This document shows, in pieces, positions 48,711 through 54,857 of a stretch of DNA of 64,000 bases. Each line of letters opens with the position of its first letter. Position 1 is the first letter of the stretch. Made by a program: the position numbers and the translations under genes. A model generated the notes under the pieces. It searched no databases, had not been told where the DNA came from, and saw nothing but the letters and a program-made list of their open reading frames with translations. The DNA is taken from the IMG/VR virus record IMGVR_UViG_3300026549_000030, positions 177,997-241,996 of that record. One strand, given 5' to 3'. The DNA is from a virus. Its lineage: Duplodnaviria; Caudoviricetes.

Positions 48711-48840
48711 ACCTCAGTAGATAGTCATAGGGTATAAGGGGCTTAAAGGCGTCCCGAAAAGGGCTGGACGATTTAATCGTAATAGGAAGGAGTACACTCC
48801 AACCTACAAAAATCGGACGGGAGAGTAGACTCCAACCTGG
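48711..48840 (+). ncRNA. Candidate structured ncRNA, copy 1
   Basis: Homologous to 50639-50767; follows a TAtcTTTG promoter; no ORF. Confidence 0.6.
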
Positions 48841-50638: not shown

Positions 50639-50767
50639 ACCTTGGTAAACAGTTATAGGGTATAAGGAATTTAAAGGCATTCCGAAAAGGGCTGGGTGAT
50701 TTTAATCGCATAGGAAGGAGTATACTCCGTCACGATTGATCACGCTGGAGCGTAGACTCCAATCTGG
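50639..50767 (+). ncRNA. Candidate structured ncRNA, copy 2
   Basis: Homologous to 48711-48840; follows a TAtcTTTG promoter; no ORF. Confidence 0.6.
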
Positions 50768-50873
50768 CCTAAAAAAAAATATAACATTTTCGGCAATAAA
50801 TCCGTTTTCCTGCCAATAATGTATAAATTTATATATAAAAAAATCCTCAGTAAAATTTACTGAAGATTCTATG

Positions 50874-50955
50874 TAGCGGGTGAGGGACTCGAACCCCCGA
50901 GGCTTGCGCATAGGCTTATGAGGCCTACAAGATGACCAACTTCTTACAACCCGCA
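50874..50955 (-). tRNA. tRNA with CAU anticodon (Met or Ile2), atypical; no encoded CCA
   Basis: TAGGC-CTCATAA-GCCTA anticodon arm; GGGGG-TTCGAGT-CCCTC T arm; GCGGGT/ACCCGC acceptor stem. Confidence 0.85.
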
Positions 50956-50967
50956 ATGTTATTTCTG

Positions 50968-51041
50968 AGCCGGTGGAGGGATTCGAACCCCCGACCCTCG
51001 CATTACAAGTGCGACGCTCTGGCCAACTGAGCTACACCGGC
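50968..51041 (-). tRNA. tRNA-Thr(UGU); no encoded CCA
   Basis: Canonical cloverleaf GCCGGTG...TCGCA-CTTGTAA-TGCGA...TTCGAAT...CACCGGC; Bacteroidetes-type promoter at about 51118-51150 (minus strand). Confidence 0.95.
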
Positions 51042-53100: not shown

Positions 53101-53245
53101 CCGGCCAGGTTTCTTTTTCAGTGAACGCCGCATGGCGTTTTCTATGATTAGCATAGGGAACGATATACCTGTTGGCTACCCAACAAGGATTTACTATCTT
53201 GACATTCGTTATTCACTCCTGCCCGTAATCCCGCTTCCCGACGGG
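53101..53245 (-). ncRNA. Putative TnpB omega-RNA/reRNA (scaffold plus about 20-nt guide)
   Basis: Overlaps the tnpB 3' end; terminal hairpin AACGCC-ATGC-GGCGTT followed by CAC, resembling an IS200/IS605 right end at 53121; putative guide TGAAAAAGAAACCTGGCCGG. Confidence 0.55.
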
Positions 53246-54396
53246 ATGTTTGTTATATTTTCTACTTTCAATTCCTTGGCAACCAACGCCTGAGGGTGTA
53301 AACCCATTTTCTTTATGTTGATTGCCGCATTAATGTCCCTGTCATGTTCGGCGCCGCAGTGCGGGCACACCCACTGACGGTCATCTAATTTGAGTTCGTG
53401 GTTTACATAACCACAGTTGGAGCAGGTTTTCGAAGAAGGCTCATACTGCCCAATGAAAACAACATTCTTACCATACATATCAGCCTTGTAAGCAAGTTGC
53501 CTTGTAAATTCGTTCCACGCGGCACTTCGAATACTATTAGCAAGGCGGTGATTTTGTGTCATTCCTGTAATATTCAAGTTCTCAAGGCATACCGTATCGT
53601 AATCCCTAATAATTAAGGTTGATAACTTATGGAGGAAATCGCTTCTCCTGTTCGCTATCTTACGATGCAATTTTGCAATTTGAAGGCGTTTTTTCTCGTG
53701 CCTTTTACTCCCCTTCTGTGTTTTTGCAAATCCCTGTTGAAGTCCTGCAAGTCTTTTTTGCCCTTTTTCAAGGAATTTAGGGTTTCCGTACTTTATTCCA
53801 TTGGAAAGAATTGCATAATCTTTGATACCTAAGTCGATACCTACGGTTGTTTCCTCACATACCTTGGTTTTCGGCATGTTTGGTTTTCCGTCATCAACCA
53901 GTATTGTACACCAATAATCTCCACAATGGTCTTTGCTTACGGTAAGAGTACCCATTCTGAGCGTGGTATCAAAAACCCTATTTTCACAGAACTTTACCCA
54001 CCCTATAGTTGGAACAAACACCCAATTTGTTTCGAAATTAAATTTTGCCCCCTGAGGTAGGCGGAAGGAATCTGTGGAGTTCTTTCTCGATTTAAACTTT
54101 GGATAACCTTTCTTCGCTTTAAAAAAACGAGTAAAGGCATTATCCAAATTCCTAAGTGATTGTTGCAGTGACGCAGCGGAGGACAGTTTTAGCCATTCGT
54201 GTTCACCGTCCTTTTTGAGTTTTGTAAGTTCGCCACAAAGTTGGACACAGGAGATTGATTTCCTTTCTTCCTCCCACACCTTCTTTTTCATGTCAAGCCC
54301 CCAGTTATAAACGAATCGAGCATTGCCGAAGGCTTGGGACAATGACTTGCATTGTTTAACCGTCGGTTTTAATTTGTATTTGTATGCTCTCATCAT
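53209..54396 (-). CDS. tnpB: TnpB/Cas12f-like RNA-guided RuvC nuclease (395 aa), no adjacent TnpA
   Basis: MRAYKYKLKPT HTH start; RuvC motifs GIDLG, CLENL and DRDINAAINI intact; CSNC/CPHC zinc ribbon. The ORF-track extension to 54606 is only the translated repeat array. Confidence 0.92.
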   Translation of the reverse strand: MMRAYKYKLKPTVKQCKSLSQAFGNARFVYNWGLDMKKKVWEEERKSISCVQLCGELTKLKKDGEHEWLKLSSAASLQQSLRNLDNAFTRFFKAKKGYPKFKSRKNSTDSFRLPQGAKFNFETNWVFVPTIGWVKFCENRVFDTTLRMGTLTVSKDHCGDYWCTILVDDGKPNMPKTKVCEETTVGIDLGIKDYAILSNGIKYGNPKFLEKGQKRLAGLQQGFAKTQKGSKRHEKKRLQIAKLHRKIANRRSDFLHKLSTLIIRDYDTVCLENLNITGMTQNHRLANSIRSAAWNEFTRQLAYKADMYGKNVVFIGQYEPSSKTCSNCGYVNHELKLDDRQWVCPHCGAEHDRDINAAINIKKMGLHPQALVAKELKVENITNIPSGSGITGRSE

Positions 54397-54458
54397 TTTA
54401 TAAAAAATCTTTTTTATTATAAATAGTTGCTTGTCTGAAAAAGTTCGAAGGGAATCGG

Positions 54459-54560
54459 GGTGTCGGTTTACTATAAATTCAATGGATTTACAACTTTCCA
54501 TTATATATTCAATTGGTAGTAGCAGGTGTTGGTTCACCACAAATTCAATGGATTTACAAC
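54459..54560. CRISPR. Mini CRISPR array: 36-bp repeat, 30-bp spacer, 36-bp repeat
   Basis: GGTGTCGGTTTACTATAAATTCAATGGATTTACAAC (54459-54494); spacer TTTCCATTATATATTCAATTGGTAGTAGCA; GGTGTTGGTTCACCACAAATTCAATGGATTTACAAC (54525-54560); 32/36 identical. Confidence 0.75.
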
Positions 54561-54857
54561 CTTCTCGTTCTATCTTATTGATTTTCCGAGCAATACACGC
54601 GCACACCGACGCGCAAAATTCCTAAAATTATATTGCATTATGTCATATTTGTTCATTTTTTAGCCAACAGGTATATCATTTCCTTAGCATATATACATTA
54701 TATCTTTCCTCAAAAGGCATGGACGTTTGTAGGAGTTTGTCAACAGTCAGATTCAGTACGTTGTCCAACTTCTCATATTCTTTTTTAGAAAGGATGCCCT
54801 TCGCCTTGGCTTCAAGGCTGTACAGTTTGTTATTTAATATTTCAGGAGAGGGACGCA

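Follow-up and report, generated by a model that had tools for sequence, protein, structure and literature searches.

The window (the whole 64-kb stretch of DNA analysed here) is the last part of a 242-kb IMG/VR virus record estimated to be 68% complete, and the sequencing runs that contain the locus are of bovine rumen origin. On its minus strand lies a unit of 1528 bp (53156..54683) made up of a left end, a leader, a mini-array, a tnpB gene (53209..54396), an omega RNA and a right end. Inverted ends and a target duplication mark this unit as a mobile element. A 23-nt terminal inverted repeat (GGGAAT.ATATAC...) is present at both ends, the left copy (54661..54683, minus strand) reading GGAAATGATATACCTGTTGGCTA on the tnpB strand, and the unit is enclosed by two identical copies of an 8-bp target-site duplication, TTAGCATA on the plus strand (53148..53155 at the right end, 54684..54691 at the left end). 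The homology with a 90% identical unit in a different genomic context, with other flanking genes (L003), begins and ends exactly at the unit ends. Exact 8-bp duplications flank 10 insertions (those of the window, L006, L012, L019, L023, L024, L053, L093, L097 and L099), and every one of the ten duplicated targets has T as its first base and A just ahead of it, which suggests an A in front of a T-initial target for the omega guides.

No transposase gene, tnpA included, was found inside the unit. Elements of the IS200/IS605 group possess neither inverted ends nor target duplications and are mobilised by Y1 TnpA (PMC13565253), and the unit lacks this combination of features (no inverted repeats, no target duplication, hairpin ends, Y1 TnpA). 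It is probably moved in trans by a DDE-type enzyme; TnpBs in transposons with symmetrical ends mobilised by DDE transposases have been described (PMC10691335). A contig of run X2 joins position 53149 to position 54690 and represents an allele without the unit, the occupied allele being present in the same rumen sample. At its junction, this empty allele has TGTG in place of the AGCATA expected of a clean empty site, so that the 8-bp target and the first bases of the putative omega guide target differ; an excision scar, an escape variant and a polymorphism between strains are all conceivable origins.

The TnpB protein (394-395 amino acids, minus strand) contains the Pfam domains HTH_OrfB_IS605, OrfB_IS605 and Cas12f1-like_TNB, and among solved structures ISDra2 TnpB comes closest, over the full length (E 4.5e-74); the match to LaTranC covers only the C-terminal third (E 1e-36). 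The RuvC triad (D187, E271, D353) is invariant in 30 relatives, and with this domain set and an intact D-E-D triad the protein has the makeup of a TnpB/OMEGA nuclease. A protein search returned thousands of relatives, many of them on contigs of 350-415 kb, and about 100 loci were fetched. The TnpBs that are accompanied by an array form a single clade (support 100/99) nested among array-less relatives, which possess the inverted ends and the downstream omega RNA and lack the leader module. This monophyly supports the proposal, made in an earlier reading of the sequence alone, that the array is mechanistically linked to TnpB.

A second TnpB gene of the phage record, outside the window (G000:C1:11246-12337), encodes a protein 42% identical to that of the window. 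On another viral contig (L078:1240-1500), three copies of an unrelated repeat of ~40 nt with a period of 73 precede a TnpB of 48% identity, and may be an independent array-like structure beside a TnpB. At 54400-54430 of the window, 20-40 nt before the start of tnpB, there is a palindrome-like motif, CTATTTAT(A/T)AATAGAAAA, which is conserved at the equivalent place in all related loci of the array-bearing and array-less clades and may be a promoter or operator of tnpB.

Repeated sequences occur elsewhere in the window as well. Two 90-nt segments that are 79% identical (48711-48800 and 50639-50728) lie 1.9 kb apart, the latter overlapping a small open reading frame beside the genes for tRNA-Met and tRNA-Thr (50873-51041). 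Between 57681 and 59935, small minus-strand genes contain diverged repeated blocks (102 nt, 77%; 61 nt, 87%) and have the start region TTTTCTTCTTGTGTCAT in common; they look like a tandem family of paralogous small genes.

The omega RNA at the 3' end of tnpB

The omega RNA scaffold module (53156..53249, minus strand; 87-bit model hit) overlaps the last 39 nt of tnpB, including the stop codon, and reaches the end of the unit. In an alignment of 30 modules from three clades, the loop of hairpin 1 (GGGAA in the window, 53239..53235) is paired in 99.3% of cells with the five nucleotides that close the element (UUCCC, 53160..53156). The two partners vary together among the 30 loci (GGGAA/TTCCC, GGTAA/TTACC, GGAAG/CTTCC, GGCAA/TTGCC and GGTGA/TCACC): both-side changes are seen at three of the five pairs, and one position of the pseudoknot is GC in 15 cases, UA in 9, AU in 2 and CG in 2. 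The covariation score is 0.366 versus 0.147 for shuffles (none of 500 as high), and controls with slid partners reach at most 0.08.

Because this pseudoknot extends to the last base of the unit, the scaffold would end there and the guide would be the flanking DNA directly 3' of it (53136..53155, minus strand). The same is suggested by the precedent of the ISDra2 omega RNA, which has a guide-adjacent pseudoknot in which nucleotides -5 to -3 pair with nucleotides -103 to -105 (PMC10097598). A guide within the right inverted repeat, by which the element would target its own left end, was considered and rejected, since the pseudoknot occupies the sequence up to the last base. An omega RNA that overlaps the 3' end of the gene and carries a guide-adjacent pseudoknot, with the flank as its predicted guide, is in keeping with a TnpB/OMEGA nuclease.

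RNAalifold adds a hairpin 2 and a short stem (GAUA/UAUC) around a GUAAAU sequence and a hairpin 3. The stem of hairpin 3, which the sequence-only reading had noticed as a hairpin of the segment on its own, differs in sequence from locus to locus (UGUUGG/CCAACA, CCUG/CAGG, CUUG/CAAG), its pairing being maintained through covariation. A scan of the window at the Rfam gathering thresholds returned two tRNAs only and no known omega or tracr family, and blastn of the locus against a phage database returned nothing.

An upstream array homologous to the omega scaffold

About 60 nt upstream of the tnpB start codon, the window contains two 36-nt direct repeats separated by 30 nt, with a period of 66 nt. 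Repeat 1 (54525..54560, minus strand), which adjoins the leader and was called repeat 2 when the array was first described on the plus strand, consists of a GUU stem, a GUAAAU loop, a hairpin, AAC and the tail ACACC (54529..54525). It is followed by the single 30-nt spacer (54495..54524, minus strand) and by repeat 2 (54459..54494, minus strand), which adjoins tnpB and is degenerate in its hairpin. The leader (54561..54617, minus strand) duplicates the 5' portion of the omega scaffold, with a hairpin 1' (loop GGUGU, 54607..54603) and a hairpin 2', and is a candidate for a tracr-like part; its stem covaries across loci (CGCG/CGCG, CCCG/CGGG, CCCA/TGGG).

The same layout is found in every locus with intact upstream sequence in the clade defined by at least ~65% TnpB identity: the left end, a conserved leader of ~57 nt and between one and 4-5 copies of the 36-nt repeat (GTTGTAAnTCC...ACACC), the last of them degenerate. 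The repeats recur at exactly 66 nt, a period shortened to 65 nt by spacers of 29 nt. There is one repeat in L003, L006 and L097, and degenerate copies adjoining tnpB are found in L098 and L099; in L003, the closest relative, the single repeat is accompanied by no spacer. In all, 18 distinct spacers occur in the clade, 15 of them with a length of 29-30 nt; the first base is T in 15, as it is in nearly all flanks past the omega end. Their mean G+C content is 38% (window, 41%). The spacers might be captured flanks of earlier insertion sites. L093 and L094/L095, which come from different samples and share both the insertion site and an identical TnpB, have the tnpB-proximal spacer in common and differ on the leader side, a comparison of limited weight since one L093 spacer holds fragments of the repeat.

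The array thus has constant-length repeats and unique spacers of constant length (two repeats and one spacer in the window), as well as the polarity (a leader and a degenerate last repeat) and the spacer turnover of a CRISPR array. As to an adaptation module (cas1/cas2), no Cas1 was found in the 242-kb record, at its estimated 68% completeness, and no spacer was found to match foreign DNA; many V-U and TranC arrays are likewise reported to be without cas genes (PMC10691335; TranC work). No protospacers were found for the seven spacers tried: exact 20-23-nt pieces of six spacers matched only the arrays themselves in IMG/VR, the window spacer had no second site in its own 242-kb record at up to three mismatches, and the whole arrays of L095 and L028 found nothing among plasmids and phages. 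Matches to a 20-nt seed of the window spacer in six metagenome contigs and three genome contigs were rejected as targets, being about as numerous as expected by chance and showing no extension beyond the seed (22-24 of 30 positions identical). The first 20 nt of the spacer are found exactly in a sequence conserved across Bacteroidota-like contigs (L108, L109, L111, L113 and L114), where the match ends; a seed of 20 nt could be sufficient for a TnpB-type nuclease.

By eye, nothing convincing as a Bacteroidota-type promoter was seen before the leader. Two bovine-rumen metatranscriptome runs contain the locus as contigs, which carry no information on strand, ends or level and may stem from DNA carry-over, and these are therefore not counted as evidence of expression. 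The X2 contigs break off where the array lies, as contigs commonly do at repeats, and this is uninformative.

An inert origin for these sequences, in which the repeats would be debris of tandem duplications of an omega-like end and the spacers junk between them, is unlikely. It would fit arrays as tiny as these (0-3 spacers), the absence of cas1 from the record, the empty protospacer search, the single repeat of the nearest relative and the repeat fragments in one L093 spacer. Against it, the leader and the repeat are conserved throughout the clade, among TnpBs down to about 65% identity, with compensatory changes in their stems; every one of the 18 spacers differs from the rest, while 15 keep a length of 29-30 nt and 15 start with T like the omega guides; and debris would hardly account for a period of exactly 66 nt, or 65 nt with a 29-nt spacer.

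Sequence features favour the tnpB strand as the one on which the array is read. The repeat fold (pairs 1-3/27-29 and 10-13/21-24) is 93.9% paired; it shows three double changes and, in eight cells, a U-G pair, which can exist on the tnpB strand only. Indirect evidence for this strand comes from these U-G pairs, from the position of the leader at the far end and of the degenerate repeat beside tnpB, and from the paralogy with the omega RNA, which holds on that same strand. Since array and omega RNA would then be read from one strand, the two RNAs would be alike and not complementary.

The omega modules (83-95 nt) and the modules composed of leader and repeat 1 (92-93 nt) are colinear from end to end, sharing the order of hairpin 1, hairpin 2, the motif AAG.T.GTAA.TCC, hairpin 3 and a tail of ~12 nt that ends in CC. 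Within the omega scaffold, the counterpart of the 36-nt repeat is the 3'-terminal ~36 nt, with the closing stem, the GUAAAU loop, the hairpin and the tail. A covariance model built from 11 omega modules alone (R1) matches leader plus repeat 1 in 13 of 13 array-bearing loci over its full length (positions 1-86), ending at the last base of the repeat. These hits are always second-best and score 21-33 bits (E 2e-4 to 0.04, rough values from a shortened calibration, for 13 hits that are mutually related and not independent); that of the window (54525-54616, minus strand) scores 25 bits (E 0.0076) and that of the best locus 33 bits (E 2e-4). Genuine omega RNAs of distant clades fall in the same range with this model (26-31 bits).

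The correspondence extends to the pseudoknot. The leader loop is GGTGT in 12 of 12 leaders, and the tail ACACC is present in every non-degenerate repeat; the tail is complementary to the leader loop GGUGU and not to the omega loop GGGAA. Compared with the omega pair GGGAA/UUCCC, GGUGU/ACACC carries three coupled changes in both partners, and as loop and tail are invariant within the clade, the predicted leader pseudoknot depends on this single comparison of paralogs. The colinear alignment, the model built from omega modules alone and the matching logic of the pseudoknots bear out one of two explanations offered by the sequence-only reading, namely that the repeat is derived from the omega scaffold. 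We give a probability of about 70% to the reading that the match between the repeat and the omega RNA is same-strand homology and no anti-repeat, that the array arose from a duplicated omega scaffold, and that TnpB is loaded in two ways. The locus looks like a CRISPR array early in its formation.

Under the proposed sequence of events, a duplication of the ~90 nt at the 3' end of the omega scaffold, in an ancestor within the TnpB lineage, would have put a second copy upstream of the gene. Hairpins 1' and 2', the first ~55 nt of this copy, would have turned into the fixed leader. Its last 36 nt would have given rise to the repeat of a small CRISPR-like array that is read on the strand of tnpB, has 30-nt spacers and places a 5-nt tail beside each guide. 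Both pseudoknot partners would have been re-coded in the copy, as ACACC and GGUGU. With the omega RNA and its flank-derived guide, TnpB would cut the element's own empty insertion site; among the repeat-spacer RNAs with which it would also be loaded, the first unit would pair its ACACC tail in cis with the leader loop GGUGU, and later units would pair theirs in trans, the leader then acting like a tracrRNA. The motif GUAAAUCC, conserved in both scaffolds, probably constitutes a protein-contact loop and the first pairs of hairpin 3. Probable targets for cutting by way of the array would be competing phages or other mobile DNA, a role already suggested for other arrays that phages carry. That one TnpB should thus serve two insulated guide channels in a unit of 1.5 kb, the omega RNA acting on its own insertion site in selfish maintenance and a re-coded scaffold having grown into an upstream array, is a tentative proposal that falls somewhat short of even odds.

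The array may also function with no leader in trans, either because only the first unit, fused to the leader, is used or because each 36-nt repeat is a self-contained handle as in Cas12a. The repeat alone folds into a stem, a loop and a hairpin, the leader is physically fused to repeat 1, and condensed omega copies have been proposed as the origin of tracr-independent Cas12 guides (PMC10097598). There would be little reason, though, for the internal repeats to keep ACACC strictly, and for this tail to match the leader loop, if they formed no pseudoknot with it; such an arrangement is quite improbable.

Complementarity between the omega segment and the repeat

The segment that had drawn attention to the locus (53170..53194, minus strand) comprises the conserved GUAAAUCC motif (53194..53187) and hairpin 3 of the omega RNA (53185..53170). 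Read from 53194 to 53170 it is GTAAATCCTTGTTGGGTAGCCAACA, and it starts 15 nt past the tnpB stop codon (53211-53209). On the plus strand, GGATTTAC occurs only at 53187, 54484 and 54550, that is, in the omega region and the two repeats, and its complement has one further occurrence in the 64-kb window. Duplexfold pairs nearly all 25 nt of the segment with the plus-strand repeat (54525-54564), at -26.2 kcal/mol, in agreement with the earlier description of the segment and of a pairing of up to about 25 bp. Shuffles that preserve the composition of the repeat have a mean of -10.1 kcal/mol (sd 2.6), with none of 2000 reaching -26.2, and of 40-nt pieces drawn at random from the window only 0.1% attain this value. 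Within the window, then, the complementarity is genuine and exceeds chance; its source is the likeness of the two DNA segments on one and the same strand. The hairpin that the segment forms by itself, UGUUGG-GUAG-CCAACA, also folds as had been described (-6.9 kcal/mol), and relatives of differing sequence likewise keep a hairpin at this position.

Across homologous loci, the duplex is not maintained. Among the 10 loci compared, it is strong only in the window (-26.2 kcal/mol) and L004 (-20.1) and moderate in L003 (-16.0) and L097 (-15.3), and it beats shuffles significantly in only 3-4 of the 10; the duplexes of L006, L012 and L013 do not beat shuffles (p 0.2-0.7), and those of L008, L093 and L098 do so only marginally (p 0.06-0.11). 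The 8-mer is identical in only two of the loci, and in the other eight 6-7 of the 8 positions match, with no compensation. Position 8 of the repeat (motif GTAAnTCC) may be A, C, G or T, while the omega RNA stays GTAAATC(C/T). The complementarity and covariation across loci that mark a tracrRNA anti-repeat are thus missing, and the proposal that the omega RNA doubles as a tracrRNA through an anti-repeat fails by a test that the sequence-only reading had itself named, covariation of repeat and anti-repeat across homologs. Two other candidates for a partner of GUAAAUCC, GGGUUUAC in the Gly-Leu-His codons and GGGAUUAC after hairpin 1, were discarded, as neither is kept in L003 or L006.

The sequence GTAAATCC, the TTG that follows it and CCAACA recur in the omega RNA and in the repeat because both are homologous on the same strand, and to judge by these shared motifs, a cross-strand reading of same-strand homology mimics an anti-repeat. 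Reading the array from the opposite strand would accommodate the strong duplexes of the window and L004 and the weaker one of L003, all of them better than shuffles, and plus-strand repeats would end in ...GGATTTACAAC, which we take to resemble the repeat ends of type V-F. Transcription of the array from the plus strand, with GUAAAUCC and the next ~17 nt serving as an anti-repeat and making a tracrRNA of the omega RNA, is nevertheless highly improbable, given a duplex that is indistinguishable from shuffles in three loci and marginal in three more, motif changes that go uncompensated, the 16 of 25 nt (53185..53170) that belong to hairpin 3 at a position where a hairpin is kept across loci, the U-G pairs of the repeat fold, the conserved far-end leader and the degenerate repeat beside tnpB, all of which point to the tnpB strand, and an omega pseudoknot loop (GGGAA) that is unable to pair with the repeat tail when a dedicated leader loop can.

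Relation to known systems and significance

The cassette is closest to TranC (transposon-CRISPR intermediate) and type V-U systems, LaTranC being the sole TranC protein compared. As described in TranC reports, that group includes the phage-borne CauTranC9, and its systems use both crRNA and transposon RNA (PMC13565253; bioRxiv 10.64898/2026.03.27.714800). By the same accounts, the cassette resembles TranC in having a TnpB-sized RuvC nuclease beside a short array, repeats of 32-38 nt and no cas1/cas2 nearby, and in a guide RNA that comes from the right-end (omega) RNA of a transposon, split into tracr-like and crRNA-like parts. The clade-wide linkage of nuclease and array, together with the omega-derived repeat and leader, agrees with the stable array linkage of a compact nuclease and the split right-end-derived guide that characterise TranC. 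Unlike TranC, the protein is much nearer to ISDra2 TnpB (E 4.5e-74) than to LaTranC (E 1e-36, C-terminal part), an intact omega RNA with its own pseudoknot stands beside the second, re-coded copy of the scaffold, and the array lies upstream of the gene in a cassette inside a mobile unit with inverted ends.

The resemblance to the ISDra2 TnpB/omega complex (PDB 8h1j, 8bf8) consists in a scaffold that overlaps the 3' end of tnpB, a flank that would serve as the guide, and a pseudoknot between pre-guide nucleotides and a region about 100 nt upstream. Unlike ISDra2, an IS200/IS605 element, this family has 23-nt inverted ends, 8-bp duplications, no tnpA and, in one clade, an array.

Type V-U* candidates are many independent associations of TnpB with arrays and without cas genes (Altae-Tran et al., PNAS 2023, PMC10691335), for which an origin of the array "by serial duplication of omega RNA segments" was proposed (PMC10691335). 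In that survey, the arrays are almost always downstream of the nuclease gene (PMC10691335), whereas here the array is upstream; and unlike the V-U* and DDE-associated branches, the duplication origin is visible here in sequence and structure, and the unit contains no DDE transposase gene. Cas9 and Cas12b/e/f, with their crRNA:tracrRNA pairs, offer a further parallel in the short guide-adjacent RNA-RNA contact that is predicted between leader loop and repeat tail, and this contact would act as repeat:anti-repeat 1, the pseudoknot, does in Cas12f. In contrast to the anti-repeats of those enzymes, the predicted contact has 5 bp and is located in the leader, not in the 25-nt omega segment.

Associations of TnpB with arrays lacking cas genes, and arrays arising from duplicated omega segments, are thus already published. 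Distinct in this lineage are the intact omega RNA beside its re-coded copy, the upstream array, the unit with inverted ends and target duplication, and a plain ISDra2-like TnpB.

Type V arrays have been proposed to arise from the omega RNA of TnpB by duplication and splitting (PMC10691335, PMC10097598, TranC work). The proposed steps stand side by side in one locus: an intact omega RNA, a copy with a re-coded pseudoknot, and the 36-nt end of that copy iterated with 30-nt spacers. The splitting model thereby becomes directly testable in a natural system, and the locus may yield a 394-amino-acid nuclease with two orthogonal guide formats. It also carries the lesson that a plausible anti-repeat can be paralogy read on the wrong strand. 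If TnpB does use both guide channels, the locus would be a natural record of the birth of an array from omega duplication, inside an active transposon hopping among huge rumen phages.
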